Source: a virus
Taxonomy: Duplodnaviria > Caudoviricetes
Reading direction: 5' to 3' (one strand)
DNA: 52,439 bases
IMG/VR virus record: IMGVR_UViG_3300031772_000049
Coordinates: 1 to 52,439 of that record
The notes beneath the pieces are model-generated. The model was given only the letters and a program-made list of their open reading frames with translations, was not told the DNA's origin and did no database searches. Position numbers and translations under genes: made by a program. Shown here in pieces: positions 5,059 to 50,992 of this stretch. Every line of letters starts with the position of its first letter. Position 1 is the stretch's first letter.

Positions 5059-5133
5059 TAGCCGTTCTCGCGGCTACATGGTGAGGGCGACAACAATGCC
5101 AGCTACTCACCAAACACTAAAATGTGACGAGAG
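5059..5133 (+). ncRNA. Dispersed tracr/omega-RNA-like scaffold fused to CRISPR-repeat 3' end (copy C)
   Basis: TAGCCG-TTCTCG-CGGCTA hairpin, GGTGAG...CTCACC stem, ends ATGTGACGAGAG (repeat end is ATGTGATGAGAG); homologous to 48375-48316 on the minus strand. Confidence 0.75.
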
Positions 5134-9172: not shown

Positions 9173-10453
9173 ATGTTTATATTTTCAAAACTATTTAAAA
9201 GACAAAAAGCCATTGGGACATCGGCGTTGATACTGCAAGGCCGCACCACTACGTCATGGCCAGAGCGCAATTATGAGAATTATGTCAAGGAATCATATCT
9301 TAAAAATATAATATCATTTCGATGTGTAGACATTATCGCCAAGTCTTGCGCATCTGTTCCATGGGTTGCGTATTTTGAAAATACATTGGGCGAGCGTCAA
9401 GAGGTTGCGGACGACGTGATTACACGTCTGTTAAAACGTCCAAACCCAGGGCAATCTTGGCTATCGTTGGTATACTCAATTATTTCTTATTTGCCAATAT
9501 CAGGTAATTCTTTCATCCTGGGCGTTGCAGCATTGTCAGGTAGTAATGTGGGCAGGGTCATGGAGCTTTATTCCCTGCGACCTGATACTATTACTATCCA
9601 GCGTAATCAGTCGGGCGACGTGGTAGAATATGAGCACCGCAGCGGGACAGACACAAAAGTATATCCAGTTGACCCGATTACCGGGCGTTGTCAGATTAAA
9701 CATATCAAACTTTTTAATCCTCTCGATGCGACATGGGGAACGTCCGTCACCGAACCCGCAGCGCGTGACATTGACCTGTCGAACAGTCAAGCGGACTGGA
9801 ATAAGGGGCTACTAGATAATCAAGCACGACCGGGGATGGTGCTATCAACCAAGGATAATTTATCCGATCAACAATTCGACCGATTGCGTAAACAATGTTA
9901 CGAGGAACGCGAAGGGGCGATGAACGCAGGCAAGACCTTAATCCTTGAGGGCGCGACCATTGCCAATTCATATGGGTACAACCCCATAGAGATGGATTTT
10001 ACTGAGGGCCAGCGCGAGACCGCACGCCGTATTTGTAGTGCGTACGGGGTGCCGCCTCAAATGATTGGTATCAAGGGTGATTCGACGTTCGCGAACTATG
10101 AGCAGGCCCGATTGTCTTTCTGGGAAGATACGGTCATTTTTTATCTTGAACTATTACAGCAAGAATTGAACCACTGGTTATTTAAAGATTCTGAAATATA
10201 TCTTGAGTATGATCTCAATGAGGTTCCCGTTTTTATTGAAAAGAAAATTGCGCGTCTTGAGAAAATTGATAAGATGTCTTTTTATACCACCAACGAAAAA
10301 CGCGAAGCCGCGAACCTTGAACCTGTCGAGGGTGGTGATTCTGTTTTGATATCGTCAACCCTTATACCTTTAAATTCCGATACTATGCTTGAAGATACGA
10401 GTGTTGAAAATGAAGAGGGTGAAAGTATAATTGATGCCATCGAGTTTGAATAA
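9173..10453 (+). CDS. HK97-family portal protein
   Basis: CVDIIAKS, LLKRPNP, GNSF, ICSAYGVPP.MIG, TTNEKR motifs. Confidence 0.95.
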   Translation: MFIFSKLFKRQKAIGTSALILQGRTTTSWPERNYENYVKESYLKNIISFRCVDIIAKSCASVPWVAYFENTLGERQEVADDVITRLLKRPNPGQSWLSLVYSIISYLPISGNSFILGVAALSGSNVGRVMELYSLRPDTITIQRNQSGDVVEYEHRSGTDTKVYPVDPITGRCQIKHIKLFNPLDATWGTSVTEPAARDIDLSNSQADWNKGLLDNQARPGMVLSTKDNLSDQQFDRLRKQCYEEREGAMNAGKTLILEGATIANSYGYNPIEMDFTEGQRETARRICSAYGVPPQMIGIKGDSTFANYEQARLSFWEDTVIFYLELLQQELNHWLFKDSEIYLEYDLNEVPVFIEKKIARLEKIDKMSFYTTNEKREAANLEPVEGGDSVLISSTLIPLNSDTMLEDTSVENEEGESIIDAIEFE

Positions 10454-10488
10454 AAATTATGAACGATACGGTTAAGAATTATATTTTG

Positions 10489-10577
10489 CAGCCGTTCTCA
10501 CGGCTGAAGGGTGAGGGTAGCGATTTACTGCTAAGCCACTCACCAGACCTCATGTCGATAGGCGAATAGGATGAGAG
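10489..10577 (+). ncRNA. Dispersed tracr/omega-RNA-like scaffold fused to CRISPR-repeat 3' end (copy B)
   Basis: 54/60 ungapped identity to 48375-48316 (minus strand); CAGCCG-TTCTCA-CGGCTG hairpin; ends GATGAGAG, identical to the repeat 3' end. Confidence 0.85.
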
Positions 10578-29816: not shown

Positions 29817-30239
29817 ATGAAAAAATATATTAAATTAGACGGCACCGACATAATAGATGTGTACTTTGAATATCAAAAGGAAAAATTTAATCCTTCAGAT
29901 ATTTTGTTGGAAGAAACGGAAATTATTGAACATAAACTTCGCGTAAAATTAAGCGACCCATGGGAAAGTATTTCGGACGAATACGGGAACTGGATATTCA
30001 GGTGGGTAAATAATGCGGTTCATATACAAAATACAGATGCAAAAATTTTAATTAAATATAAAAAACAAAAAGTTGCACAATTGAAAGAAGTAATAAAAGA
30101 AAATCTATTCGAGGTCACACGCACATTGGACCAAATAAGAACACAATTTGGTAATGTGAAAACATCCTCTACTTCATGGACAACTATATCCGAAGTAGAT
30201 GTGGCATATAATCAATTTATAACATGGTTAGGGATTTAA
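29817..30239 (+). CDS. Putative tail fibre assembly protein
   Basis: Position after the fibre gene. Confidence 0.45.
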   Translation: MKKYIKLDGTDIIDVYFEYQKEKFNPSDILLEETEIIEHKLRVKLSDPWESISDEYGNWIFRWVNNAVHIQNTDAKILIKYKKQKVAQLKEVIKENLFEVTRTLDQIRTQFGNVKTSSTSWTTISEVDVAYNQFITWLGI

Positions 30240-32896
30240 TTGAAGTATTGAATATACTTTGTTTTAAATTTTATCGCGTCTCTGTCCATGTTTAAGTTCT
30301 GCATAGTATTAAATACTTTTCCATAAATCGTTATGTCGTAGGGAAATTTTTCCAGGTATTGATTGTACGCATCCAGTGCGAATTTATAATTCTCAAGGCT
30401 TACATACAAATCCCCGATACTTATAAAAAAGAAATCATAATCTTTTGAGTTTTGCATCACATCTATAATTAAAACCAGACCTTCCTGAATTTTATCCTTT
30501 ATATTTATGAGTGCCAGCCCCTTTTCAAATTTGAACTTTATAACGTCAGGGTGAGTGTCAATTAAGTTGTCATATAATTTGACCGCATCGGGGTATAAAT
30601 TGAGCATACATTTCGTCGTCGCAAGGCCCCACAGGGCGTCTATTTTGTCAGGGTATAGCCTGTTTGCTTGCTCAAGGCTTTCCATGGCCGATATAAAGTC
30701 TTTTTTTTGTCCGGATTCAAGGGCATTATCCATCCACTCATTATACGCTAATAGTTTTTCGTTCTCTTCCCAGTTATAATTCTTATGTGCTTCAAAAATC
30801 TCTTTTTCTTTCATCAGTATAAATCTTCTTATCATAGGTATGGGGATATCTGTATTTTGAGGGGTATATGTCATAAAATCATTGGGGTTTTTTCTTAATT
30901 CCAATAAAGGCCTTGACCAATTACCCTTGGCATAAAAATCGTCAATCATATTAAAGTCAAATGGCTTTTCATTATGCTTGATCAAGAGCTCATTATAATA
31001 ACCCGCGTGCGCATAGTCATCGATGACTGCCAGTGATTCGTTGTACAATGGCAATAATTCTTTTGATGCTTTATTGGCTGATTTTAAAATAATCTCGTTT
31101 CGTTCGATACGGGTTAATAAATCCTCTTCATCTTTTAATAGATGTTTTACTTTTCCATTGACCTTTAAATTACTTGATTGAATTTGACGGGATTCTGCAA
31201 ATATAGACATGGCAATCAATTGATTTTTCTTCGCAATCTCTTCTGCCTCTTTTGATAGACGTTCATTATCCGCAAGTATTTTTTTGAGTCCCACTTTATC
31301 CTTTATATGTTCACGCAATTGGTCGCAAGTTTCAAGTGCTTGTTTTGATACGTCAATCATGGATTCTATATTTTTAATATCTTCTTTTAAGCATTCCATA
31401 GCAATATCGCAGTGTGTTTTTATGTCTGGTGGTGTGATTAAAACTACCTTGTTTATGGGTTCGAGGCATCGTGTATTAAGATACGTATGTAGGGATAACT
31501 TTTTAAATCCCTTTATGTTTGCGCCGCCCTCGGTGCAATTAAAAAGTTTATCCTGCATACCCTTGGCAATTGCCTCAAACGACGAAATAAAAGCCGCCAA
31601 TCCTATATTGGTAAGTACTTGCCCACCGAAGTATCCAGGCACCCGATGCTCAGGACCCATGCCATGCCGTGCGCCTTTTAAATGGCTGGAAGGGTCTGTC
31701 ACTTCCCACAATATTTGCCCGTCTTCCACGAACACTTTTCCGCTTGCATCTGCGCCGGAATAATGGGATAAAGAGTCCGTCAGGGCCAAGTCTTGCCCAA
31801 TGATTGCTATGGGAGCGCAGCCGAGGTGGTTGGCGAATGCGAGGGCCATGTGCGATACACTCCCCCCTTGATCAAGATTACCTTTTGAGCTTAACAGGGT
31901 ATTTAATTTTGTATCGGTTGCCGTTTCAGATGCGACGATTATCTTAGGCCCGTGGTACTCTTGCAGGATGGGCGCATATGATCGATTAAGAGCCACCAAT
32001 GGAACGTCAGAATCCATAAGGCCCTCGAAGTGTTCATAGTTTGTTTTACCATAATCGACCGTACAGATAAAATCAGGCCGTATGTCATATGATAAAAGGA
32101 TGCGGAGTGCCTGGGCGACCGCGATGATCACCACGTCATTTCTTTTTTCTTGTAATAAAAAGAGATTCTTTTTTAGAGATGGTCCTGTATTTATTATGAT
32201 GGCAGGCTTGTTTTTAAAATAGTCTTTATAATCAGCCACCCCTGGGCAGGGTAGTACGTAAGGTAAATTTTCAATATCATTGCGGGCGATAGTAGCACCT
32301 GCGGCCATAATAGTTCCTGTATTACATTTTAAATTATTTATATAAGAATATGCTTCAACCATTAACGGCTCATAAACCAAAGGCTTGTCAATTGCGTATT
32401 TTTCCACCATAACAAACCAATCTTGAATGACTGCAATCTGTTCGATGACCGCCATATACATTTTTAATGAGTCCGCAGATCGACAAATGACAAGTGTCCC
32501 ATTATCAAACCACTTAGAAAAATCGTAAATTTGCAGGGCAGACCAGATTAAAAATAAATCTGGTTCAATCACTATTATATTGTGTTGCTTGTCTTTTTTG
32601 ATTATAAACTCATGGCACGTATGACCGAGTCCCAGGCCGACCATGATTGTGGAGGTATCGAAACGTAATTTAAAATCTTTGGCGATATCCCGCATGGCCC
32701 GACGAGGATTTTTTATGTCATACGCATGGCAGGTCATCGATGAATTTTTGTATGTGATGTTTTTTATCCCTTGCCCTACAATTGTATAATCTTTACTTTC
32801 ACCATTAAAGGCCTTTAGGTTAACAGCAAGCTCCGGAAAGTATTTTTCTATGGGTTTAAGGTTGGCATTAAAAATTTTCTTTGCTTCACGTTTCAT
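30236..32896 (-). CDS. maf: Maf-family (DUF115/MAF_flag10) nonulosonate glycosyltransferase with C-terminal TPRs
   Basis: GLGLG, TGPSL.KN, I.PDF...VD, GGSV.H.A...A..LGC.PI..IGQDLA, NCTEGGA.I.G; helical TPR-like tail. Confidence 0.85.
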   Translation of the reverse strand: MKREAKKIFNANLKPIEKYFPELAVNLKAFNGESKDYTIVGQGIKNITYKNSSMTCHAYDIKNPRRAMRDIAKDFKLRFDTSTIMVGLGLGHTCHEFIIKKDKQHNIIVIEPDLFLIWSALQIYDFSKWFDNGTLVICRSADSLKMYMAVIEQIAVIQDWFVMVEKYAIDKPLVYEPLMVEAYSYINNLKCNTGTIMAAGATIARNDIENLPYVLPCPGVADYKDYFKNKPAIIINTGPSLKKNLFLLQEKRNDVVIIAVAQALRILLSYDIRPDFICTVDYGKTNYEHFEGLMDSDVPLVALNRSYAPILQEYHGPKIIVASETATDTKLNTLLSSKGNLDQGGSVSHMALAFANHLGCAPIAIIGQDLALTDSLSHYSGADASGKVFVEDGQILWEVTDPSSHLKGARHGMGPEHRVPGYFGGQVLTNIGLAAFISSFEAIAKGMQDKLFNCTEGGANIKGFKKLSLHTYLNTRCLEPINKVVLITPPDIKTHCDIAMECLKEDIKNIESMIDVSKQALETCDQLREHIKDKVGLKKILADNERLSKEAEEIAKKNQLIAMSIFAESRQIQSSNLKVNGKVKHLLKDEEDLLTRIERNEIILKSANKASKELLPLYNESLAVIDDYAHAGYYNELLIKHNEKPFDFNMIDDFYAKGNWSRPLLELRKNPNDFMTYTPQNTDIPIPMIRRFILMKEKEIFEAHKNYNWEENEKLLAYNEWMDNALESGQKKDFISAMESLEQANRLYPDKIDALWGLATTKCMLNLYPDAVKLYDNLIDTHPDVIKFKFEKGLALINIKDKIQEGLVLIIDVMQNSKDYDFFFISIGDLYVSLENYKFALDAYNQYLEKFPYDITIYGKVFNTMQNLNMDRDAIKFKTKYIQYFN

Positions 32897-33081
32897 TTTT
32901 TCGCCTTTGATATCTTTTTTATAATCTTTGATATATCTTGATCATTGATTATTATTTCACGTAAAATCTTTTTTGTATGCTCCGGGTTCGCCCTCATGGC
33001 TACCCTGACAATATCCATCCACAGTGAATTATTTTTAGTTCGTATTTCTTGTACATTATCTATTGATTTTTCGATATCCAT
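32893..33081 (-). CDS. Small hypothetical protein
   Basis: ORF overlapping both neighbours in the operon. Confidence 0.5.
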   Translation of the reverse strand: MDIEKSIDNVQEIRTKNNSLWMDIVRVAMRANPEHTKKILREIIINDQDISKIIKKISKAKK

Positions 33082-33629
33082 TCCGACCTCAATATGCCAT
33101 AATGATAAATGTCGACATGGTTGCCATCAAGATACATCCCCTCACGGGAGCACCCTTCTTTAGTCATCCCCATGCGCTCGGCCACACGTTGCATCCCTAG
33201 ATTAACCGCAGCGGTGCCAGTCCATATACGGTTTAATCCGAGTCTTTTAAATCCGTGTTGCAATACAAATTGGGCTGTCTCGCTTGCATAGCCCTTGCCC
33301 CAATAGGCTTTCTCACCGATAACAATAGCGTATTCCCCTGAACGGTGTATGAAGTTAATTGATTGTAAACTTGTATTTCCGATGTGATGCAGTTTTCCCG
33401 TGTCAACGCCATTCGGGTCACGTCGGGCCATGATTGCCCATACAATATTGTTTCTTCCAATAGAATTAAAAAAGTTTTCAAGCTCTTTTTCACTTTGAGG
33501 AAAAAGACCATGGCTATTAAACTTTGTCACTTCAGTATCCGCCCACCAAAATCTATATGTCGATTGCGGTTGGTCGGCTATCATGCGGCTGAAAGGCAGC
33601 ATTATAAAATTATCATTTTCATAAATCAT
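33060..33629 (-). CDS. GNAT (RimJ/RimL-type) N-acetyltransferase, PseH-like
   Basis: HIGN..L, IGEK.YWGKGYA, N.GM..V....GM..EG..R. Confidence 0.85.
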   Translation of the reverse strand: MIYENDNFIMLPFSRMIADQPQSTYRFWWADTEVTKFNSHGLFPQSEKELENFFNSIGRNNIVWAIMARRDPNGVDTGKLHHIGNTSLQSINFIHRSGEYAIVIGEKAYWGKGYASETAQFVLQHGFKRLGLNRIWTGTAAVNLGMQRVAERMGMTKEGCSREGMYLDGNHVDIYHYGILRSEWISKNQ

Positions 33630-33849
33630 TAAAATCACCTATCATTTTTACTTGCGCTTTTTTACATCGCTTGCGCATTTCGATGACATCCACTTTTAAA
33701 AGTTCTCGTTTTTCATAAACTACATTTGAGGTAAATTGAGTTTTTATATTTACGTAATAATTATTACATTCTGATAAATCACTAAAAATATATTTTAATG
33801 TCCCATCGACATGAAGTAGATGCAACTCAATCATATAAACCCCCCTCAA
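33619..33849 (-). CDS. Hypothetical protein
   Basis: ORF track; lies in the operon. Confidence 0.4.
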   Translation of the reverse strand: MRGVYMIELHLLHVDGTLKYIFSDLSECNNYYVNIKTQFTSNVVYEKRELLKVDVIEMRKRCKKAQVKMIGDFNDL

Positions 33850-34795
33850 GCATGGTGCGCAATTGTTCTTTACTCAATAATAAATCGTTATTCAACGAGG
33901 TATACATAAACCTATTTTGATGTATTTCCGCATCGGTGGGTCTAATAATATATCGATTGTCATTGCGCAGGGTGTGGGTTGACTCCTCTTCAGCTATTAA
34001 GCATTCGTGGAGCTTTTCACCTTGACGAATACCAATAAATTTTTGTTCACACTCAGGGGCGATGACATCGGCAAGATCGGTAATTTTCATAGAGGGCATG
34101 CGAGGGATAAATATTTCAGCGCCGATTGTTTCCTGTGCGGACTGAATTATAAATTCCGCCACGTCATGAAGTTTAATCCAGAATCGGGTCATGTCTGGGT
34201 GGGTAATAGTAATGATCCCGGATTCGCGTTGCTTTTTAAATAAGGGTATAATTGATCCCCGCGAACCCAGGACATTCCCGTACCGACAACATGAAAATCG
34301 GGTCATATAATGACTTGAGTACACATTACCGTGAATAAGATATTTTTCAACGACCGTTTTAGTCGCCCCGTAAATATTGACCGGGTAAACCGCCTTGTCT
34401 GTTGAAACGTGCATGACCAGTGACACGCGGTTATCAATAGCCGCATTTAAAAGGTTAATAGCCCCCATGATATTGGTTTTAATTGGCTCTTCGGGATTGT
34501 ATTCACATGCAGGAACTTGCTTCATGGCGGCGCAGTTGAACACGAGGTTGACGCCCGCCAGGGCGCGATTAAGTCTTTTTTCGTCCCGAACATCTCCGAT
34601 CAAAAATGATACATTACGGTCAAGACCCTCGGCTTGCAATTCTTGCTTCATTTCCCACTGCTTTAATTCGTCGCGGGAATAAATGCGAATGCCACGGGGG
34701 TTGTATGTGCGTTTTAATAGTTTTGTGAGGGTGCGGCCGAGACTGCCAGTTCCGCCGGTTATTAAGACCTCCGCATCCGATAGATTAAAATTCAT
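33827..34795 (-). CDS. pseB: UDP-GlcNAc 4,6-dehydratase (PseB/FlaA1 family)
   Basis: TGGTGS.G, YSRDELKQ, AA.KQVPACEYNP, STDKA..P.N.YGATK, RYGNV.GSRGS. Confidence 0.9.
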   Translation of the reverse strand: MNFNLSDAEVLITGGTGSLGRTLTKLLKRTYNPRGIRIYSRDELKQWEMKQELQAEGLDRNVSFLIGDVRDEKRLNRALAGVNLVFNCAAMKQVPACEYNPEEPIKTNIMGAINLLNAAIDNRVSLVMHVSTDKAVYPVNIYGATKTVVEKYLIHGNVYSSHYMTRFSCCRYGNVLGSRGSIIPLFKKQRESGIITITHPDMTRFWIKLHDVAEFIIQSAQETIGAEIFIPRMPSMKITDLADVIAPECEQKFIGIRQGEKLHECLIAEEESTHTLRNDNRYIIRPTDAEIHQNRFMYTSLNNDLLLSKEQLRTMLEGGLYD

Positions 34796-35626
34796 TTATT
34801 GCCTCGCTCGTTTTAATGGTCGCATACCGTCGTCAGGATCGGCGCGTTGATCGCGATCTTGCTCAGTAATCATTTTCATCGAGGGCCCCCGCGCAATCTT
34901 GCCGATATTTGTATTATGGATAACCTGTTTTATTTTGTCTGGGTTCCAACAGTGTCCATGCTTTGACTCGTACCCTTGCATGTCTGGAAGATCAATATGA
35001 AACTCTACATACTCTGCACCCTCAGCGATTGACTGATATATCACACCGTCCTCAACCGTGTGATCAGACCATCCAATTTTCGTACCTTCAAACTCACGTT
35101 TTAATAATTTGATTTTATATAGCTCGCAATTATGGTGTGATGCGGGGTAATCAGATCGACAATGGAAAAGAACTATATCGTCGTTGTCCTCTTCATTACA
35201 GGCGCCAATCGCCGCGTTTATTTCTTCCATGGTACTCATCCCGGTCGATATCAATACTTGTTTCCCCGTACGTGCGCACCTGCGTATGAGGTCAAGGCGC
35301 AATAGATCAAATGATGAAATTTTAAAGAAATCAATATGATGGGCCAACACCGGGACAGCCTTATCATAAAAAGGCGTGCATCCGAGCATTATTTTTTTAT
35401 CTTTACAGTACTCTTCTATGTCGGGTAAAAAACTTGGCGGTAATTCGCATTTATATAATTCTGCTTTTTTTTCAACAGGTGGGTTGTATAGTAATGTATC
35501 AAATGTAAACAGTTGAAACTTTACACCCCAGCATCCCGCGTCTTTTGCGGCATCGATCAATTTAAAAGTGCGCTTCAAGTCTTGATTGTGATTCGAACCG
35601 ATGTCAGCCACGTATCGTATGGTCAT
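34796..35626 (-). CDS. NeuB/PseI-family nonulosonate synthase (TIM barrel only)
   Basis: ADIGSNH, VKFQ, KI.S, STGM, HC.S.YP, GWSDHT; no C-terminal AFP-like domain. Confidence 0.9.
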   Translation of the reverse strand: MTIRYVADIGSNHNQDLKRTFKLIDAAKDAGCWGVKFQLFTFDTLLYNPPVEKKAELYKCELPPSFLPDIEEYCKDKKIMLGCTPFYDKAVPVLAHHIDFFKISSFDLLRLDLIRRCARTGKQVLISTGMSTMEEINAAIGACNEEDNDDIVLFHCRSDYPASHHNCELYKIKLLKREFEGTKIGWSDHTVEDGVIYQSIAEGAEYVEFHIDLPDMQGYESKHGHCWNPDKIKQVIHNTNIGKIARGPSMKMITEQDRDQRADPDDGMRPLKRARQ

Positions 35627-36903
35627 ATTTCCTCTATAAAGTTTTCAATTTTTTTAAATGCTTCAAATAGACTGTCGAGTGCGCGGTCGTCGTCCAGTAG
35701 ATGATAAAGTGACAAAAAGAATTTATCAAATTGTAGCGCCTCGCAATTCTCGCAAAAAACTTTGGTGTAATCCATACCTTTGATCGACCAATGTGACGCT
35801 TTCTGAAATATTGGCATTTTATAAAGTGGGGTGATATATCCCGCGCCAATCATAGGACGACCAGGTCGATTTTCTTCGCCCATCATTTCAGCCTTGATTG
35901 CATCGATGTATTTATTGCGTGGTACGCTCATACCGTTATAAAAAAATGGCTGCACATAGTAGGTGTGTACGGTATTTTTTCTTATCTCAGGTTGAGATAT
36001 GTACGGAAGCGCGTTTTCTACTTTCGCATAAAATTCATTTACTTTTTTTATAGTGCTAAATATAGTTGCCCTGAATTTTTGTAATTCATGATAGGCAATG
36101 ATTGCTTGTATCTCGGTCATGCGCATATTAAATCCGACCATACCAGACATTTTATTCTGCATAAATTCAGGCATACCATTTGCCACCGCCTCGGCATGGT
36201 TACGGATAAGGGCGCATTTTTGGCCAAGCTCTCCATCATTTGTGGTAATCATGCCCCCCTCGCCAGAGGTGATATGTTTTCCTTGCGTGAATGAAAAACA
36301 TCCAATATGGCCAATAGTGCCGGTCATTCGTTTTTTATCATCAACGGTATAATGAGCGCCAAGGGCTTGCGCGGCGTCCTCAATTAGATAAACACCATAT
36401 GAATCAGCAAGTTTACGTAATTCAATGTCTATTGGTTGCCCGAATAAATCGACTGCTATAATGGCCTTCGTTCTATGAGTAATTTTTCGTTCGACATCGT
36501 TAATATCAAGGCAGAACATATCTTTTTCTATATCTGCGAATACCGGGATGGCACCATAAATCATAGGCGCGGTCGCCGAGCAGGTCATTGACCACGGGGT
36601 GACAATTACCTCGTCACCCGGTTGCAGCCCTATGGCACCGCAGGCAATGTGTAATGCAGATGTACACGAGTTGACCGCCAAGGCGTGTTTACATCCGATA
36701 TACTCTTCAAATGTTTTTTCGAGCCTTTTGATCATAGGCCCTCCCCAAAATTCAGGTTGGAATGACCCGCGATAATGAGATAACACGCCAGAGGACAGCG
36801 TTTCTTCTATCTCGGCTTCAATAATATTAAGATCAAATTGGCATTGATTTTTAAAAGGACGTTCAACCAATTTCTTCCCGCCATTTATTGCCAGGTTCAT
36901 CAT
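35623..36903 (-). CDS. DegT/DnrJ/EryC1/StrS aminotransferase (PseC-like)
   Basis: NSCTSALH, IEDAAQA, FSF..GKHITSGEGG, GFNMRM. Confidence 0.92.
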   Translation of the reverse strand: MMNLAINGGKKLVERPFKNQCQFDLNIIEAEIEETLSSGVLSHYRGSFQPEFWGGPMIKRLEKTFEEYIGCKHALAVNSCTSALHIACGAIGLQPGDEVIVTPWSMTCSATAPMIYGAIPVFADIEKDMFCLDINDVERKITHRTKAIIAVDLFGQPIDIELRKLADSYGVYLIEDAAQALGAHYTVDDKKRMTGTIGHIGCFSFTQGKHITSGEGGMITTNDGELGQKCALIRNHAEAVANGMPEFMQNKMSGMVGFNMRMTEIQAIIAYHELQKFRATIFSTIKKVNEFYAKVENALPYISQPEIRKNTVHTYYVQPFFYNGMSVPRNKYIDAIKAEMMGEENRPGRPMIGAGYITPLYKMPIFQKASHWSIKGMDYTKVFCENCEALQFDKFFLSLYHLLDDDRALDSLFEAFKKIENFIEEI

Positions 36904-37892
36904 GCGCGACCTCGTATATGATTTATTATTTTATGCACTTGCAGGGCATCAGTACCCGTACAGTGCGGGACATCTTCACAATTTAAAAACGCTACCGCAT
37001 TATCCACTAATTCGGTCAATGTGTTGGCCAGGTTTGTGTCGATTGATACAAACGGGACTTGACATAGCCTGGAATACGACCCATACGTTCCGTCCTTTTC
37101 AAGATCATAAATTTCTATTTTTGCAAAGTTATTGAGTAACCTGATGCGACCGCCATTGATAATATCAAATTCAAACATTGAACAATAACGGCCATCAATT
37201 GCGGTCATGACAACATTCTTGCACCCTTCATAAATCAAATGATAAGAGTATGTCGGGTCGGTGTCATCAAGATCAATTATCGCTGGTCCTTCCAGTCGAT
37301 ATCCATCAATAAAAGAGCCAAAAATATAATTACAAAAATCAATAGCATGGCATCCATCGCGGTATAGCCCCCTATTATAAGCTATTCTGCATGAATATAT
37401 AGTTGCACCCTCGACCTCCCATAAGGCCCGTATGGTGCTTCTAATCGATCGTAGGTGGTGATTATACCGGCGGATGTAATCGACCATTAGTATTATATTG
37501 TTTTCATCGCAATAATCAATAATATCCTGGCACTCTTCTTGAGACAGACCCAGGGGTTTTTCGGCAATTATAATCTCCGGGCAATACCCTAATTCCTTTT
37601 TAATTCCGGTAATAACTTTAAAATGGTCCTCGGTATTTACGCACACCGCGATAATATTTATTTTTTCGCGAATATCCGATAAACTGAAGTGCATGTGGCA
37701 ATCCCATTTAGTACACGCATCGACCATTTTATTATGATCAAGATCAATGAGCCCGACTAAATTTATTCGATCATTGCGATAGAAAGCATTTGCGAACGTG
37801 AGCACATTTTTTGATGCTTGACTATCAAGTTCAATAGGTTTAAGCGCACCGATTGATCCGCAACCAATCACCACCGCGTTGTATTTTTTCAT
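36900..37892 (-). CDS. Gfo/Idh/MocA family oxidoreductase
   Basis: IGCGSIG, EKP, YIRRY, GCHAID. Confidence 0.88.
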   Translation of the reverse strand: MKKYNAVVIGCGSIGALKPIELDSQASKNVLTFANAFYRNDRINLVGLIDLDHNKMVDACTKWDCHMHFSLSDIREKINIIAVCVNTEDHFKVITGIKKELGYCPEIIIAEKPLGLSQEECQDIIDYCDENNIILMVDYIRRYNHHLRSIRSTIRALWEVEGATIYSCRIAYNRGLYRDGCHAIDFCNYIFGSFIDGYRLEGPAIIDLDDTDPTYSYHLIYEGCKNVVMTAIDGRYCSMFEFDIINGGRIRLLNNFAKIEIYDLEKDGTYGSYSRLCQVPFVSIDTNLANTLTELVDNAVAFLNCEDVPHCTGTDALQVHKIINHIRGRA

Positions 37893-38662
37893 CCCTTCCC
37901 CGGCTCCTTACGTACCACATGGGCATTGTGTTTTAATATGTCGCCCGTTTTAATGTATTCAATAATTGTTTCGGCGTTCATAGTTTCGGGATGGTCGGCA
38001 AAGTGTTCTACTATTTTTTTAATAACAATCAGGTCGGCGGGTTCATCGAGCGTCAGGCCCCATTGTGGGAATCGGTATTTATGCCCGGCGGTGATATTAT
38101 ACGTGGTAAGTATTTTATTTATATTAAATTCTATCTGGTCGCGATAGTGCAGGATATTCCATCCGACATGCGAATAGTGATTATTATCATCAATAGCATG
38201 TTTCGCATCTTTTAATAAATCCTTATGGTATACCTGCACATCGAATCCGTCAGGCCAGGTACGTGGTGAGATATTGCTTGCATAGTCGTACCCATTATCT
38301 TTTACCTGATAAATAAGACCCTTGACGTGTGATAAATCAACCAAGGGACAGTCTGCGGTAATGTCCACGATGATATCAATTTTATTTTCCTTGGCGGCAT
38401 CGAGCACGCGACATATGACGTTATTTTCATCACCCCTGAAAACGGTATAACCTTTTTCAATAAGCATTGAATAAAGTTTGTGCTCAGTTTGATTTTTGGG
38501 GATTGCTATTATGATTGTATCAATTTCTTTTAAAGTGGAAAGGCGTTCGAGTAAAAATTCTAAGACGGTTCGTTCGTCTATTTTTTCAAGTACCTTGCCC
38601 GGATACCTGGTTGACCCGATGCGCGCCTGGATAATCGCACCCACTTTAATCTTCATAGTCAA
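37889..38662 (-). CDS. SpsF/PseF-like cytidylyltransferase
   Basis: IIQAR.GSTR.PGKVL, G.E.NV..R, ITADCPL.D, LTLD...D. Confidence 0.9.
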   Translation of the reverse strand: MTMKIKVGAIIQARIGSTRYPGKVLEKIDERTVLEFLLERLSTLKEIDTIIIAIPKNQTEHKLYSMLIEKGYTVFRGDENNVICRVLDAAKENKIDIIVDITADCPLVDLSHVKGLIYQVKDNGYDYASNISPRTWPDGFDVQVYHKDLLKDAKHAIDDNNHYSHVGWNILHYRDQIEFNINKILTTYNITAGHKYRFPQWGLTLDEPADLIVIKKIVEHFADHPETMNAETIIEYIKTGDILKHNAHVVRKEPGKG

Positions 38663-42164: not shown

Positions 42165-42656
42165 TCATTCGTATTTATCACAAATACCTAAAAAATTTAC
42201 ATTACTTTTTAATTCAACGCAAACGACAACATGCGGTAAATCAGAAAATACGTGACGGCAATTACCGCAACAATGCAGCTCAATTTCTGTATAATTAACT
42301 TCTTTTAGTTTTTCAATTTCAAACGACATATTTCCCTCCCCGCTCCTGAGGTTTGCGCCCACGAGGTCTGCGCCCTCGAGGTATGCGCCCTCGAGGTATG
42401 CGCCCTCGAGGTTTGCGCCCTCGAGGTTTGCGCCCTCGAGGTTTGCGCCCCCGAGGTCTGCGTCCCTGAGGTCTGCGTCCCTGAGGTTTGCGCCCACGAG
42501 GTCTGCGCCCACGAGGTCTGCGTCCCTGAGGTTTGCGCCCCTGAGGTCTGCGTCCCTGAGGTTTGCGCCCACGAGGTTTGCGCACTTACCCCCATCTATG
42601 TCTTTCAGCCACTTGTCATGCAAGTCCAGTATTGATTTTAGTTCTATGTCTGTCAT
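42165..42656 (-). CDS. Pentapeptide-repeat protein joined in frame to a Cys-rich domain
   Basis: A(N/D/Y)L.(G/D) repeats encoded by 15-bp tandem repeats at about 42345-42582; C-terminal CCGNC...C...C. Confidence 0.8.
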   Translation of the reverse strand: MTDIELKSILDLHDKWLKDIDGGKCANLVGANLRDADLRGANLRDADLVGADLVGANLRDADLRDADLGGANLEGANLEGANLEGAYLEGAYLEGADLVGANLRSGEGNMSFEIEKLKEVNYTEIELHCCGNCRHVFSDLPHVVVCVELKSNVNFLGICDKYE

Positions 42657-43075
42657 TTTTCTACCTCGACGCCGCACGGAGAACCATTGACAAATTCATA
42701 TTTTTCTAACAACTGATTAAAATTTGGAGAATAACAATTATCGTCAAAGTCTCTTATCAACGCTATCCCATCACCATTTTTGGTTTGTGCAATAGCTAGA
42801 ATATTGTATTCCTTTTTTGATTTTTTATTCCGAATCCATTTATAATATAAATTTTCTCTTTCCTCAAAAGTAAATGACCGCCATGATTTTTTGGGAATGA
42901 TATGCACCTCTCTTTCTTCAAAAAAAACTTTACCAAAAAATCCGTCCTCACCTTCAACCGGAATACACGCAAAATATTTTCCGCTTTTTTCTATAAATTT
43001 TCTTTGGTATCTTCCGACCTTAATATCAACACTTACAATATCACCCATTTTTAACTCTGTCATTTTACTCATCAC
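42653..43075 (-). CDS. Hypothetical phage protein
   Basis: ORF track; ends Y.F..GSPCGV. Confidence 0.55.
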   Translation of the reverse strand: MMSKMTELKMGDIVSVDIKVGRYQRKFIEKSGKYFACIPVEGEDGFFGKVFFEEREVHIIPKKSWRSFTFEERENLYYKWIRNKKSKKEYNILAIAQTKNGDGIALIRDFDDNCYSPNFNQLLEKYEFVNGSPCGVEVEK

Positions 43076-45776: not shown

Positions 45777-45961
45777 CTCGGCACATCCTCCATACCATTA
45801 AATAAATTTACCTTAAACTTTTCAATATCCCGTTCTATTGCATTAAGCCTTTTACCCATAAAAATAAAAGTCTCTGACAATACAATCATCGATACAAAAT
45901 TCACGATTGAGAAAATTATTATGATGGTCAATATCGCGCCGTGTTTACGTTCATCGCTCAT
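45773..45961 (-). CDS. Small membrane protein
   Basis: Hydrophobic N-terminus; ATGA overlap with polA. Confidence 0.45.
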   Translation of the reverse strand: MSDERKHGAILTIIIIFSIVNFVSMIVLSETFIFMGKRLNAIERDIEKFKVNLFNGMEDVPR

Positions 45962-47844
45962 TTAAAATACCTCTTTGACATAAAACTTTCTGTTTTCAAC
46001 GGAAACCCCTTAAACCATTCCGGCGGGACGTTCATTATAGTATCAAATACTTTTAATTTCGCCTTTGCCTGCGTGGTCAATGCCTGGGCGACCACCTCAT
46101 CATGCACACTCATGATCGGGAATATCTCCACTTTATCAAGCTCAAGCATCGCGTGGCATAGTAAGTCCCGTGCAATGGCCTGGACGATGTTTTCAGTAAT
46201 AAGTCCGCCCCATAATTTTACGGTCATATTCTGCGCAAAATTTAAAAATGATATCCCCTCGGGACCCCTGGTCACACGATGATAGTACAGGTCCCGGCCA
46301 GAGGGCAGTTTAATAGATACATAGCCCTTGTCGGCATGTAATAGCATACCATTTACTTTTACTTTCTTGCCCTTATTAACCAGTACATAATTAAAAGCCG
46401 ACTCAATCGATGCCCAGAATTGCACAATATTTTTAAAGCTTGATCGATAAGTATAGATTGCTTTTTCGGCGGTGTGAATATTGATCGCCAATCCCTGCGC
46501 CTGGCATACCTCAAAAAATCTATTATGACCCATCCCATATCCTGCTCCTAAAATTACACTTTTCCCAAGGTGCCTTTCTTTTTTTGTCACGTCATCCAGG
46601 GGCTTTTGATAAATTACGGCTGCCATTTTTTTATACAGGTCATCCCCTTTTCGATACGCCTCAATCAATATCTTTTCCCCCGCAATCCAGGCAAGTACCC
46701 GCGCTTCAATTGCGGAAAAGTCGCCCATTAAAAATACGTGCCCTTTATCGGGGATAATCATTCCGGGTAATACTTTTTTAGCTGCGGTCATAGTTTCAAT
46801 TACTGGAACTTTATCCGCCAATAAATCCTTTAATAATGCCGCCTGTTCTTTTTCTGTTTGTCCACCCTTAGGTAGATTATGGGGCTGGAAGCCTACCCCG
46901 GACCATCGACCCGTATTCGCCCGATAATATTGCAAAAAATACCGCAACCTGCCATCAGGGGACACCCGATCAATCAATGCGGAATACTTCTTGATTGATG
47001 AGCGGGATAAAAACAAACGCAACTCAAGCATGGCACGGGCATCCGCGTCAAGATTCGGATTTAATAATATATCCTTGATTGTTTTTTCCTGCGCATTGGC
47101 GATTGATATATTAAAATTGTCCTTTAAATACTTTTGTAATTGTTTCGGTGACCGGACATTTACCCCCTTTTCTTCCATCCGTTTTTCGGCATCCAGGGTC
47201 GCGGCATTGACTAGCATGTCTATCTTTTTGAGAGCCTTGACATCAATATGTATACCATGAATGTTTTGTCTACGGTCAAGATTCATAATCGGCTTTTCAA
47301 TTGCAATATTGTCGTACTTCGCTAATCTATTATATACCTTTTCAGTCAATTCCACGTCTTGTTTACAATACATAATCATGGTATCAAGTTCAGCCGCCGG
47401 TATGGGATTAAATTCACCCTTACGATTAGGCTTGCTATACGTTTGTATCAGGTGCTTACCCACCGCGAGCTTGCTCTCCCCGAGTTTTAAGACGCCGCAC
47501 AGAGGTTCTAAGCCCCCGGGTAGCGCCATGCAGCGTGCCATGTTAGCGGTACATTCCCATCGTAATGGGTCCGCGAGGGCCAGGGGAAAGCCGTATTTTT
47601 TACGTAGTACATTAGCAAATAGCGCATACTCAAAAAGGGCATTGTGCGCAACGAATGTATATTGGTGATTGACATGAAAAGCATCCGGTACACTATCTCC
47701 GGGCACCCACACGTTGACTTTATTGCCCTCGACCTTATACGCCACACAAAAAACATCGGTTGATGAATGCTCGGCATACCGCCATGCGCCCACTTCAACC
47801 AAGTCCGCTTTTGATCGTGTTTCAATATCAATAAATATTTTCAT
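45958..47844 (-). CDS. polA: Family A DNA polymerase with 3'-5' exonuclease
   Basis: DIET, AHNA.FE, YCKQDV exonuclease motifs; TGRWS, DFSAIEAR, R..GK...LG.GYG, VHDE. Confidence 0.93.
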   Translation of the reverse strand: MKIFIDIETRSKADLVEVGAWRYAEHSSTDVFCVAYKVEGNKVNVWVPGDSVPDAFHVNHQYTFVAHNALFEYALFANVLRKKYGFPLALADPLRWECTANMARCMALPGGLEPLCGVLKLGESKLAVGKHLIQTYSKPNRKGEFNPIPAAELDTMIMYCKQDVELTEKVYNRLAKYDNIAIEKPIMNLDRRQNIHGIHIDVKALKKIDMLVNAATLDAEKRMEEKGVNVRSPKQLQKYLKDNFNISIANAQEKTIKDILLNPNLDADARAMLELRLFLSRSSIKKYSALIDRVSPDGRLRYFLQYYRANTGRWSGVGFQPHNLPKGGQTEKEQAALLKDLLADKVPVIETMTAAKKVLPGMIIPDKGHVFLMGDFSAIEARVLAWIAGEKILIEAYRKGDDLYKKMAAVIYQKPLDDVTKKERHLGKSVILGAGYGMGHNRFFEVCQAQGLAINIHTAEKAIYTYRSSFKNIVQFWASIESAFNYVLVNKGKKVKVNGMLLHADKGYVSIKLPSGRDLYYHRVTRGPEGISFLNFAQNMTVKLWGGLITENIVQAIARDLLCHAMLELDKVEIFPIMSVHDEVVAQALTTQAKAKLKVFDTIMNVPPEWFKGFPLKTESFMSKRYFK

Positions 47845-47870
47845 ATTATTTCATCAAACTCCGTTTTACG
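47838..47870. repeat. 33-bp direct repeat, copy 1 (polA RBS and start, abutting the terminal CRISPR repeat)
   Basis: TTTTCATATTATTTCATCAAACTCCGTTTTACG, identical to 49563-49595. Confidence 0.95.
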
Positions 47871-47871
47871 T

Positions 47872-48234
47872 CTCTCATCACACGCGCCCGCGCGAGTTGC
47901 AGGACCATAAAAAGTAATATGGTACAATGCAATCATCTCTCATCACACGCGCCCGCGCGAGTTGCAGGCAAGCAATTATTCAAAAAGCAATTACACGTCA
48001 AACTCTCATCACATGCGCCCGCGCGAGTTGCAGGGTTATGTTTCGTCTGTCAAATATGGTTCCCTTCTCTCATCACATGCGCCCGCGCGAGTTGCAGGAA
48101 GTCCTCTGTTTTGCTTTTCTTGACGTGGTGTATTCTCTCATCACATGCGCCCGCGCGAGTTGCAGGGATAAAACCCCCATCCCTGCAAGCCTGATTAACA
48201 GCCTCTCATCACATGCGCCCGCGCGAGTTGCAGG
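47872..48234 (-). CRISPR. CRISPR array, six 32-bp repeats and five spacers of 32-36 bp
   Basis: Repeat (minus strand) CCTGCAACTCGCGCGGGCGC(A/G)TGTGATGAGAG at + positions 47872, 47937, 48003, 48067, 48135, 48203; spacers 33, 34, 32, 36, 36 bp. Confidence 0.97.
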
Positions 48235-48236
48235 TG

Positions 48237-48375
48237 CCTGCATGTAAACGCTGATTGATTGAGCTCATGCGCCCGCACTTCCGCTAACCTTACATTTCTC
48301 GTCTATTGGCGTGGTGTCTGGTGAGTGGCTTAGCGGTAACCCGTTGCCCTCACCCTCCAGCCGTGAGAACGGCTG
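48237..48375 (-). ncRNA. Putative tracrRNA/omega-RNA scaffold (copy A), overlapping the cas12f 3' end
   Basis: Loop TTCTCA complementary to repeat end TGAGAG; GGTGAG/CTCACC stem; 3' anti-repeat TTACATGCAGG pairs with repeat CCTGCA and GCATGTGA. Confidence 0.8.
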
Positions 48376-49569
48376 AGCATCAAATGATGCTATATTCAAA
48401 GCGGCATTGTAATCCGCATTGATTTCTAATCCGCAGGATTGACATACGAAATGCTGTTGATCAACCCTGTTTTCTTTCGCCCGATGACCGCATCCAGAAC
48501 ATGTCTGTGATGTATATCGGGGATTTATATATTCAATGTCGATACCCTGATTTTTTGCCTTATACTCAATCATTTTTTGTAATTGATAATATGTCCAGTT
48601 CCTGCGTAAAAATTTATTCTGAATATCATCATGTATACCCGTCAATTTTTCCATACGTATCATCCCGACATTATTAGCCACACAAAATTTTATGGTTTCC
48701 CTTGATAATAAATGGTTATAGTTTGTACGCACTTCATGCTCTTTGTTTTCAAACCTGTCCAGGGCTTTTAATTTTTTTGTCCGTCCGTGCCCGCTGGAAG
48801 TTAATTTTATATTTTTTTGTAATGATCTCTTTTTTTGAATGCTGACTTTACGGGTCATTTTTAATATGTCGTCCATGCCCCCCAGGAATAAACGTTTCGG
48901 GGTGTCTTTTATGGCGAGCGATAATAAATTAAATGAATTAGCGTTTGAGTCAATCCCGCATACAATATTTTTATTCGGGGACTTTGTTATTATTTCATGT
49001 GAATGAACAATGTATAAATACCAGAAGCCTTTTCTTTTTATTAATTTTGAATCATGCTGGTCATATGCCCCCGATAGTATGCCGTCAAGAATTACAGATA
49101 ATGACTTATCTTTATTTATGCCGATCATTTCAAACTTTGTTTTATTCATGGCCGATGGTTCTAAAAAATATCTACCATCAGTTTTATATATTTTTCGCCC
49201 CTGCTTTCGGCATGGAATTGAATCATCTTTCATTCGTGGTATAGAGCGCATATTTTTTAATATATCTTTTTTAAATTTTAAAAATTCATTAACCGCATCA
49301 ATCCGCGCGTGAGAAGCAAGAGTTTTTGTAGCAAATTCAGGATCAGTTTTAAAACTATCAATATACGAGGCATACGATAACGACCGGCCGTCTTCTTTTT
49401 TCACTGTTTTATTATCAATATTGTTCTGCATATATGCCACACACCGACGAATAGCAATATTGCGTTCTCGATTTAATTCGTTGCTCACGCACGCCATCCA
49501 GTACATGATTTTTTTCCAATCATCACCGCAAATGATAAGTTTTATTTTAGCTACTGCCCGTGTTTTCAT
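48265..49569 (-). CDS. cas12f: Cas12f1-like (TnpB-derived) miniature type V effector
   Basis: RuvC-I VCGID, GHGRTKKLK, NH..SR, RuvC-II MEKL, NWTYY.LQ..I.YKA...GI, P.YTSQ.CS.CG, C..CG, RuvC-III NADYNAA.NI; adjacent array. Confidence 0.9.
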   Translation of the reverse strand: MKTRAVAKIKLIICGDDWKKIMYWMACVSNELNRERNIAIRRCVAYMQNNIDNKTVKKEDGRSLSYASYIDSFKTDPEFATKTLASHARIDAVNEFLKFKKDILKNMRSIPRMKDDSIPCRKQGRKIYKTDGRYFLEPSAMNKTKFEMIGINKDKSLSVILDGILSGAYDQHDSKLIKRKGFWYLYIVHSHEIITKSPNKNIVCGIDSNANSFNLLSLAIKDTPKRLFLGGMDDILKMTRKVSIQKKRSLQKNIKLTSSGHGRTKKLKALDRFENKEHEVRTNYNHLLSRETIKFCVANNVGMIRMEKLTGIHDDIQNKFLRRNWTYYQLQKMIEYKAKNQGIDIEYINPRYTSQTCSGCGHRAKENRVDQQHFVCQSCGLEINADYNAALNIASFDAQPFSRLEGEGNGLPLSHSPDTTPIDEKCKVSGSAGA

Positions 49570-49595
49570 ATTATTTCATCAAACTCCGTTTTACG
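49563..49595. repeat. 33-bp direct repeat, copy 2 (DUF2800 gene end and cas12f start)
   Basis: Identical to 47838-47870. Confidence 0.95.
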
Positions 49596-50645
49596 CGGTA
49601 CTAGCTTAATCAATTCAGGGGTGTTGTAATACCCTTCCAGATTTTTCTTCCCCGCAATCTTTTCAAGTTGCGCGGGGCTTTTCAGCTTTTTATCAAATAA
49701 ATCATCCTTCAAGTACCCAAAGTCTTCAATCACTTTTTTATCATCATTCCATCGCCGATGCCCGTATCCGGTCCCGCGCATGAACAGTGACAACGTGGTC
49801 CCCGCTTCCAGGGCTTTCATCAAAGTCAATTCAATAGCATTCAAATAATTCTCTATATTCTTTTTATTCATGTAAATCTTTTCAAGTACTTCAATCGATG
49901 CCGAGTGTTCCCCCGCCTGCGCCAGGGTATCAACCATTGAGATATACTCACCCATTTTCGGGCATACCAGCATGCAGGGGCAGAATGTGCACCAATTGCC
50001 GGTCGTGCATGAGGTGTTTACAGTAATTTCATCCAGGGTCCTTTCAATTTGTTTTAAAAAATATTCAACTGTATAATCTTTATACTCGCTTTTCGCATGC
50101 CGCTCAGTCTCATTATAATAGAAGGGTTGTACGATATGCAGGACCACACTCATATCGCCGGATAATTGCTTTCTCATATTCCACAGCACCACGCACGCAG
50201 TAAAATATAATTGGTCAAATGCAGAACTTGAATAATCCCAATTGCCCGTCTTGAGATCATACACATCCAGGCGTCCCGAACTTAAAATCATCGCGTCCAT
50301 TTTTGCCACACACTCGAACCCTTGAATCGTTTCCCGATACTTTTCTTCAACAATCAACTCGCCTTTTAATTTCTTTTTGTCCTTTAATATAATGCCTGAA
50401 TAATACTTTGCAACTTCGGTCACCGCCTTATACTCGTTATCGTCCTTAGCATACCCCGCATCCTTCATGGCCTGAGCCATTGCCATACCCCCGAGTACAT
50501 TCTCGCCCACCTTATGAATTTTCTTACCACGTTCGGCGACGGCCAATACCGGACGATACTCAAGGATTTTATCCATGGCCTGGTATAGATGCAACGACCC
50601 TGGGCAATGAATAATTCGGTTAACTTCGCTTGCTTGTATTTTCAT
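49566..50645 (-). CDS. DUF2800 / Cas4-like PD-(D/E)xK nuclease of the phage replication module
   Basis: S..R...CPGS, A.RG..IH, D......V.DLKTG, QL..., G.WC.FC....C, KL.SPAQLEK. Confidence 0.85.
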   Translation of the reverse strand: MKIQASEVNRIIHCPGSLHLYQAMDKILEYRPVLAVAERGKKIHKVGENVLGGMAMAQAMKDAGYAKDDNEYKAVTEVAKYYSGIILKDKKKLKGELIVEEKYRETIQGFECVAKMDAMILSSGRLDVYDLKTGNWDYSSSAFDQLYFTACVVLWNMRKQLSGDMSVVLHIVQPFYYNETERHAKSEYKDYTVEYFLKQIERTLDEITVNTSCTTGNWCTFCPCMLVCPKMGEYISMVDTLAQAGEHSASIEVLEKIYMNKKNIENYLNAIELTLMKALEAGTTLSLFMRGTGYGHRRWNDDKKVIEDFGYLKDDLFDKKLKSPAQLEKIAGKKNLEGYYNTPELIKLVPRKTEFDEII

Positions 50646-50963: not shown

Positions 50964-50992
50964 AACATACATAACAAACGAAACCTTGTCAA
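50964..50992 (-). promoter_or_regulatory. Sigma70-like promoter of the DUF2800-cas12f-CRISPR-polA operon
   Basis: TTGACA-17 nt-TATGTT on the minus strand. Confidence 0.65.

Follow-up and report, generated by a model that had tools for sequence, protein, structure and literature searches.

The closest described relatives of the system reported here are AsCas12f and CnCas12f1 (structures 8dzj, 8j12, 7wju, and 8hr5), effectors of 422–497 aa with the RuvC residues D/E/D, a zinc ribbon of four cysteines (CCCC), and an adjoining CRISPR array. Effectors of the Cas12f1 type act as asymmetric homodimers on one guide RNA, use a tracrRNA whose anti-repeat pairs with the repeat, and cleave double-stranded DNA in a manner dependent on a protospacer-adjacent motif (PAM). 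Published Cas12f guides measure 134–152 nt without the spacer (PMC13186708). A review describes type V-F systems as enriched on plasmids and mini-arrays as present in viruses (PMC11656645); cas12f (type V-F) has been shown in a phage from the gut in a 2026 preprint (10.64898/2026.08.10.744029), and Cas12f-like folds in huge oral phages in a 2025 paper (PMC12297358), so that a phage-borne Cas12f is not new in itself. In TnpB, the guide scaffold (omega RNA or right-end element RNA, reRNA) lies over the 3′ end of the nuclease gene, and a split of omega RNA into tracrRNA (trans-activating CRISPR RNA) plus crRNA (CRISPR RNA) has been proposed (PMC13565253). Here, we analyzed a cas12f1-type gene (48265–49569, minus strand) in the IMG/VR virus record IMGVR_UViG_3300031772_000049, the whole of which (52,439 nt, linear) is referred to as the window. 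We regard the gene as part of a genuine type V-F1-like Cas12f cassette in an early replication operon, made up of the effector, a scaffold over the gene 3′ end, and a CRISPR array without adaptation genes, and put the probability of this reading at about 0.7.

The protein of 434 aa is similar in size to AsCas12f and CnCas12f1 and shares with them the RuvC D/E/D residues, the CCCC zinc ribbon, and the adjoining array. Both also provided its best sequence (1e-42 to 6e-46) and fold (~1e-27 to 1e-23) matches. It differs from them in four respects: (i) its identity to these and the other solved Cas12f effectors is ~28–30%; (ii) its first RuvC motif (RuvC-I) reads GIDSN and is followed by a two-residue insertion; (iii) its putative scaffold lies over the 3′ end of the open reading frame (ORF), not in an intergenic tracrRNA gene; and (iv) it is phage-borne, with no cas1/cas2 in the record.

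All 14 top matches among the sequences of solved structures were Cas12f proteins (8hr5, 6e-46; 8j1j, 2e-44; 7wju, 1e-42; down to 9n9c, 6e-16), with AsCas12f entries at ~1e-43. In the same search, ISDra2 TnpB reached just 2e-3, and LaTranC chains matched with E = 0.007–0.009 (7e-3 at best) over residues 331–398 only, i.e. the zinc-ribbon region, leaving the protein far nearer to Cas12f than to either and outside the described TranC clade. The Pfam family Cas12f1-like_TNB (PF07282) matched the 434-aa protein with 4.5e-26 (91 bits, cut-off 26.3). An AlphaFold2 model, computed with a 26-row alignment as input, had a mean predicted local distance difference test (pLDDT) score of 79.8. Its Foldseek ranking was headed by AsCas12f (1.9e-27), followed by Al3Cas12f, CnCas12f1, SpCas12f1, OsCas12f, and Un1Cas12f, all above TnpB. 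For residues 398–434, the pLDDT was ~30. The size of a miniature single effector (~400–700 aa), the greater proximity to Cas12f than to TnpB, and a CRISPR array in the same orientation, starting 30 nt past the stop codon, are all as in Cas12f1. Judged by its sequence, the protein is a divergent Cas12f1-type effector of a type V-F1-like module.

An ordinary IS200/IS605 TnpB passenger without CRISPR function, which is how the sources annotate the relatives ('IS605 OrfB family transposase'), is an extremely improbable alternative. Apart from the name 'transposase' given to relatives, it can draw on the NCBIfam model guided_TnpB, a broad subfamily, which scored 158.5 bits (cut-off 100), and on the Cas12f2 model NF049972, which at 118.5 bits fell under its curated cut-off of 450, so that the protein is not assigned to Cas12f2. 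It conflicts with the six-repeat array 30 nt downstream and with the best sequence and fold matches, which are all Cas12f, with E-values ~40 orders of magnitude better than for ISDra2 TnpB. A Y1 transposase (TnpA) was not found in the 52-kb record, which is estimated to be 45% complete, and neither were Cas1 or cas1–cas2 adaptation genes; control genomes were positive in the TnpA search. Unlike TnpB elements, the locus showed neither a transposase nor insertion sequence ends; the gene lies between two copies of a 33-bp direct repeat.

The RuvC residues D207 (in GIDSN), E307 (IRMEK), and D386 (NADYN) and the zinc ligands Cys357, Cys360, Cys376, and Cys379 were invariant in an alignment of 26 sequences (the query and 25 of the 54 non-self matches from the first homology search), in which R368 was conserved to at least 90%. 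All 25 relatives in this alignment displayed G-[IV]-D-[LMIV]-G without the insertion. An exhaustive profile-free search gave closer relatives than the first search, and nine of the ten best, which were aligned, span the motif. The closest relative (P0060; 47% identity, 450 aa) reads G-M-D-S-N-A-N-S and contains the same two-residue insertion; the other eight carry the usual D-[LMV]-G. Since a GIDSN-type motif together with the insertion is kept at 47% overall identity, it appears to be selected rather than decayed, and the D-S-N-A-N-S variant looks like a conserved working motif.

A preliminary description of this DNA, made from the sequence alone, had proposed a phage-borne miniature Cas12f1, and this is borne out by sequence, fold, adjacent array, and phage context. 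The ORF of 434 aa (~395 without the tail) was confirmed, with the tail beyond residue ~397 predicted to be disordered, and the structural comparison with AsCas12f1 that it had suggested returned AsCas12f as the top Foldseek match. The three RuvC acidic residues and four zinc-finger cysteines that it had listed are all present, and the GIDSN motif with a short insertion is real. Its further suggestion that the RuvC-I variant weakens cutting is neither supported nor excluded by the sequence. The role in competition between phages that it had proposed stays hypothetical, as no target emerged from any of the spacer searches.

The altered RuvC-I loop also bears on a different view of the protein, namely that it is an RNA-guided DNA binder or regulator and not a cutter, which would autoregulate the cassette via the terminal guide of the array and tune the large-terminase gene (terL) and a head gene through two solitary scaffold units described below. 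This seems quite unlikely to us. The motif with its insertion is unlike that of 25/25 relatives, yet it is kept in the nearest one. D207, E307, R368, and D386 are all retained, and known binding-only Cas12 relatives lose catalytic residues (PMC11656645, PMC13565253). In addition, no above-chance partial seed matches were detected elsewhere in the window.

The CRISPR array (47872–48234, minus strand) occupies 363 nt between cas12f and the DNA polymerase gene polA and consists of six 32-nt repeats and five spacers of 32–36 nt (S1 to S5). The two repeats nearest polA share one A>G change. The repeats of the window and of a related locus (L012, see below) fold to the same internal hairpin shape, and neither fold beats shuffles. 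Exact scans for the repeat in viral and genome contig collections gave 0 matches, and comparison of the whole array with GenBank phages yielded chance-level matches alone (12 records, all E >= 1). The longest match of a spacer to the window itself was 15 nt. The first 22 nt of S1 were found 0 times in metagenome contigs, as were those of S2 and S3 in viral contigs; S4, S5, and plasmids were not part of these scans. As no protospacer was found, no PAM can be read from the sequence. The guide read from the last repeat is identical, at 33/33 positions, to the left copy of the 33-bp direct repeat, which contains the cas12f start; this match would suit the autoregulation expected of a binder. A contig from run X1 joins 48002 to 48203, i.e. 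the first repeat to the fourth without S1–S3, and reflects a variant array or else an ambiguous assembly path across the repeats.

Beneath the C-terminal tail of the protein lies a candidate RNA scaffold. This scaffold unit 1 (48296–48375, minus strand; 102 bits, z −3.36) comprises two hairpins (HP1 and HP2) and a linker and falls within the tail coding sequence at about aa 399–425. It is followed by a scaffold-to-first-repeat stretch (48235–48295, minus strand), in which an 11-nt exact fragment of the repeat core (48266–48276) runs across the stop codon (9/1000 shuffles were as good). A protein search of the record gave a second match of the tail at 10471–10566. Between unit 1 and this second copy (unit 2), the DNA is 84% identical over 77 nt, and a third copy at 5059–5133 (unit 3) is more diverged. 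Each copy forms two hairpins, with folds that beat those of shuffled sequences (z −3.2 to −3.4; 0–1/200 shuffles as good). In the three-copy alignment, 96.5% of cells pair compared with 26–48% in slid controls, and two changes are double-sided; the shuffle control is powerless at n = 3. A covariance model (R1) found in the window these three copies only (82–102 bits), the next match having E = 2.5. The core shared by the copies amounts to ~60 nt and whole units to 75–89 nt, against the 134–152 nt of published Cas12f guides.

An alignment-based scan of IMG/VR yielded eight related loci, five of which were searched with R1; L015–L017 were omitted, their match figures being the same as those of L014. 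In L018, the model matched at 4570–4636 (E = 7e-9), directly after the Cas12f-like gene. In L012, it matched at 5273–5364 (E = 1e-5), where the scaffold separates the gene from an array of six repeats; the repeat there is identical to that of the window at 23/32 positions. Weaker matches were obtained at 2946–3012 of L018 (E = 0.003) and 2481–2563 of L014 (E = 0.025). Among the five best sequences, 96.6% of cells pair compared with 29–47% in slid controls, a value as high being reached in 0/500 shuffles; five pairs change on both sides (3/500 shuffles), and the covariation score was reached by 1/500. In L012 as in the query, the ORF tail continues across the hairpins, and the frame is the same. 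The stem changes of L012 replace residues while keeping the pairs, which indicates that the RNA is conserved and not the peptide. Most likely, therefore, the tail is a read-through over a guide-RNA scaffold, as in TnpB, and unit 1 is, on sequence grounds, a candidate tracrRNA or omega-like scaffold. The pattern of the scaffold had 0 matches in collections of viral, genome, and metagenome contigs. A pseudoknot between the HP1 loop and the repeat end was dropped, since the A>G change in unit 3 equally converts a U-A to a U-G pair within HP1 and the loop differs in L018. An intergenic region of L003 was too weak as a scaffold homologue (E = 3.8 in cmsearch; an exact run of 14 nt, shared with unit 2 only) and was not used.

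The gene and the array are bracketed by two copies of a 33-bp direct repeat that are identical at 33/33 positions (E = 5e-11 within the window). The left copy (49563–49595, minus strand) comprises the last nine codons and the stop codon of the DUF2800 gene, followed by the ATGAAAA that starts cas12f. The right copy (47838–47870, minus strand) stands one base after the last CRISPR repeat and consists of a vestigial 3′ end of DUF2800, which still encodes the C-terminus, followed by the ATGAAAA that starts polA. In the simplest reading, a cassette of ~1.7 kb, extending from cas12f codon 3 through the last repeat, was inserted exactly at an ancestral overlap of the DUF2800 stop and polA start, with duplication of 33 bp. 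The insertion may have occurred via template switching at the 7-bp ATGAAAA microhomology. Owing to the duplication, cas12f and polA have retained identical upstream sequences and start codons.

The replication module on the minus strand consists of, in this order, a promoter-like site (50964–50992), a 102-aa ORF, the gene for DUF2800, a PD-(D/E)XK nuclease (49566–50645; PF10926, 3.7e-25; PF12705, 2.8e-5), cas12f, and, downstream of the array and in the same orientation, polA, encoding a family A DNA polymerase (45958–47844; PF00476, 4.9e-30). The promoter-like site (TTGACA-17-TATGTT, 10/12) is the best one ahead of the operon and is a consensus match alone. No terminator-like sites were found on the minus strand from 50992–50964 down to 46265. 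The single good promoter-like site together with this result suggests that cas12f would be co-transcribed with the replication genes. The placement in an early replication operon given in the preliminary description is backed by gene order and overlaps, and its claim of translational coupling within a DUF2800–polA operon held in part: the DUF2800 stop and cas12f start overlap by 4 nt (ATGA, 49566–49569), but cas12f is not coupled to polA, from which the 363-nt array separates it. The coupled appearance of cas12f comes about because it inherited the duplicated DUF2800/polA junction.

The stretch is present in 13 sediment metagenome runs, among which no RNA run is listed. In four of the 13, Logan contigs break at 49592/49593 and at 48203 and none spans the cassette. 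As contigs break at repeats, the lack of a spanning contig is weak evidence either way. Close relatives of the DUF2800 and polA proteins were not found in IMG/VR, and the nearest polA of a GenBank phage is 33% identical, so that no insert-free relative is available for comparison. The cluster of the Cas12f protein at 90% contains four other members that are 98–99% identical. In one member (P0057; 426 aa), the C-terminal residues are those that the CRISPR repeat encodes. As read from the protein alone, this implies that ~80 nt (48233–48312) were lost naturally between two CACC microhomologies, which would join the scaffold core to the first repeat. Other contigs in several sediment runs match only 30–36-nt pieces of cas12f (49255–49291, 48805–48836, and 48499–48534). 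They then enter unrelated sequence, with flanks that differ on each side, unlike in a host CRISPR array; at 85% likeness, these matches may be due to chance.

Units 2 and 3 stand alone in the late region. Unit 2 (10489–10577, plus strand; 97 bits, z −3.18) lies between the portal gene (9173–10453) and a head-morphogenesis gene, ending 4 nt before the start codon of the latter (ATG 10582). Unit 3 (5059–5133, plus strand; 82 bits, z −3.34) covers the start of the large-terminase ORF, for which 5078, 5096, and 5171 are possible starts. The 3′ end of the CRISPR repeat agrees with the last 17 nt of unit 2 at 14/17 positions (2/1000 shuffles as good) and with the last 12 nt of unit 3 at 11/12 positions (1/1000 shuffles as good). 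In the window, GAYGAGAG is found eight times, with six of these 8-mers in the repeats and one closing each solitary unit; 1.1 occurrences are expected, and 0/100 shuffles reach eight. With scaffold and repeat-end match combined, the two units are organized like a fused single guide, i.e. scaffold, repeat end, and following sequence. A guide derived from the flank is plausible for these two units only; behind the gene itself, the array follows. The sequences after units 2 and 3 have no other match in the window. A strong promoter-like site (11/12) is located 58 nt ahead of unit 2, although chance alone would give about one such site in 400 nt.

Possibly, the solitary units are RNA decoys, comparable to anti-CRISPR RNAs of the solitary-repeat type, or inert recombination relics, and in neither case working guides, an explanation that we find improbable. 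The units are short, their 3′ parts differ among copies, and the 3′ end of unit 1 itself resembles the repeat no better than chance (445/1000 shuffles). Against this, both hairpins are kept in all three copies, unit 3 carries a compensatory change from C-G to U-A, and the exact repeat-end motif is at the right place in both solitary units. Moreover, the phage has its own cognate Cas12f, so that a decoy would titrate the phage's own enzyme. The positions of the units can also be read in terms of a DNA-binding regulator: the 3′ end of unit 2 is a purine-rich stretch just before ATG 10582, and unit 3 overlaps the possible terL starts. However, what stands before the DNA that a solitary guide covers is the unit and not a PAM, so that binding in cis would be unexpected.

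The nearest homologous systems that we found are those of the IMG/VR viral contigs L012 and L018. L012 encodes a full-length protein 37% identical to the query, has the same scaffold after the gene and overlapped by the ORF tail, and possesses a six-repeat array. In L018, the scaffold comes straight after the gene, beside genes for a single-stranded DNA-binding protein (SSB) and Mom. Both differ from the query in having the usual RuvC-I motif (G-x-D-L/M-G, seen in the look-alike proteins P0064/P0065) and one R1 scaffold copy per whole record; L014 has 0 copies by the same count. L018 additionally differs by a second, different scaffold and a two-repeat mini-array in front of the gene (2946–3101). 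Its compact scaffold (4570–4636) is not followed by an array but leads into the flank that precedes the SSB and Mom genes. On L012, a viral contig of 161 kb, a LAGLIDADG-like ORF (379–1401) lies ~2.6 kb upstream of the Cas12f locus.

Among isolated phages, gp53 of Bacillus phage Mgbh1 (KU665491.1) is 31% identical to the query (4e-37), and its gene stands between primase and SSB/polA in the replication module. Upstream, the gene adjoins a two-repeat mini-array, directly before which are hairpins and an anti-repeat of 9 nt. In Alicyclobacillus phage MMB025, a CRISPR region is annotated beside a 'transposase' gene. In both phages, unlike in the query, the array is upstream of the gene, and both genes are annotated as transposases. 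R1 gave nothing significant on either genome. The Mgbh1 genome contains just its two repeats and no solitary copies of the repeat end elsewhere. Together with the copy counts of L012, L018, and L014, this means that solitary late-gene units are seen only in the phage analyzed here; the solitary, flank-guided units are the unusual part of the system. In the fecal phage record MT835745, no array was found within the 4.2 kb examined. In the Mgbh1 paper (PMC5135824), the words 'transposase' and 'gp53' occur 0 times, and all CRISPR passages concern host spacers, with no phage-borne array.

A selfish, TnpB-like homing system with little or no role in defence, in which guides from the flanks cut insert-free alleles of relatives during co-infection, the inserts are copied in by recombinational repair, and the five spacers are incidental, would account for several of these features. 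As with TnpB omega RNA, the scaffold overlaps the gene 3′ end; the compact, array-less scaffold of L018 ends like unit 3 and runs into the flank before the SSB gene; units 2 and 3 occupy intergenic sites of the conserved packaging/head module; and non-restorative homing of transposons into co-infecting phages or plasmids is in print (PMC13565253). We nevertheless consider it rather unlikely. No insert-free allele was found, and no contig spanned the cassette in the four runs, although the latter counts for little given the breaks at repeats. The left 33-bp copy would itself be the target of the terminal guide, the record contains no Y1 transposase, and related records have a single scaffold copy, which indicates that the spread of solitary units is not general.

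Under the reading that we prefer, a genuine Cas12f cassette, the operon transcript would provide Cas12f, scaffold RNA, and crRNAs early in infection. Cas12f, in which every catalytic residue is kept, would then most likely cut PAM-flanked double-stranded DNA that matches the spacers, in competing mobile elements absent from the databases. Units 2 and 3, which run into the starts of terL and the head gene, may give rise to fused, omega-RNA-like guides directed against the same site in insert-free relatives. Such guides would spare the carrier because the unit stands where the PAM would be. That the fused guides spare the carrier and hit insert-free relatives is conceivable from the sequence, albeit doubtful. 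We are slightly more reserved about the full scheme, in which one Cas12f would serve two kinds of guide (crRNAs from the mini-array and hard-wired, omega-RNA-like single guides) and insert-free relatives would be cut at essential late genes during co-infection.

As in TnpB and TranC, the solitary units would take their guide from the adjoining flank, and templates for fused and split guides would both be present in this genome. Free-standing phage homing endonucleases, with their intronless homing and localized marker exclusion, offer a functional analogy only: in both cases, conserved late genes have inserts between them, and the allele lacking the insert is proposed to be cut in co-infecting relatives (PMC13565253). 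Unlike in homing endonucleases, target recognition would here be based on RNA and not on protein.

Several observations weigh against a working Cas12f cassette. The RuvC-I motif departs from 25/25 relatives in the first alignment and from 8/9 in the second, so that the protein may not be a fully active nuclease. The anti-repeat is weak: in its best duplex, the upstream region pairs with the repeat at −26 kcal/mol, compared with −34 to −39 kcal/mol in unrelated phage windows, and P0057 is without the segment that would hold the anti-repeat. The covariation alignment comprises five sequences only and was fitted to the model, which favours structure. None of the spacer searches gave a target, and the record, as stated, is estimated to be less than half (45%) complete. 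Finally, the terminal guide would make the phage target itself if a PAM lay at the left 33-bp copy.

The carrier is an uncultivated sediment myovirus. The phage genes in the record include those encoding primase, large terminase, portal, head-morphogenesis protein, protease, major head protein, and tail sheath. Genes for an Enc34-type SSB and an SNF2 helicase are divergent from the minus-strand replication module. Rfam at gathering thresholds gave 0 matches over the window, as did a tRNA scan. A sugar-modification cluster on the minus strand (30236–38662) contains genes for (i) a Maf-like/MptE-like protein with tetratricopeptide (TPR) repeats; (ii) a PseB-type dehydratase (Polysacc_synt_2); (iii) NeuB; (iv) an aminotransferase; (v) an oxidoreductase; and (vi) a cytidylyltransferase. 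It looks like a nonulosonic-acid pathway of the pseudaminic or legionaminic acid type. A 170-aa ORF (42165–42677, minus strand) consists, as read from its translation, mostly of pentapeptide repeats (A-N-L-R-D-A-D-L and similar).

The array, the 33-bp bracket, the scaffold under the tail, and the two solitary units all go beyond the preliminary description. With them, the locus provides a compact and apparently intact example of a phage Cas12f whose RNA parts are mapped, earlier phage cases having been recorded only in passing. The 33-bp bracket offers a base-level view of how a phage operon with translational coupling took up a CRISPR module. Provided that the enzyme is active, the D-S-N-A-N-S variant and the short scaffold core would be of practical interest in developing small editors. 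The split of omega RNA into tracrRNA and crRNA is a question on which the overlap of scaffold and ORF end bears, together with the solitary units and their repeat ends; these features would also open RNA-guided homing between phages to direct tests with plasmids. If one Cas12f does use both kinds of guide, the phage would represent RNA-guided marker exclusion and homing between phages, as well as a living example of the transition from fused to split guides between TnpB and Cas12.

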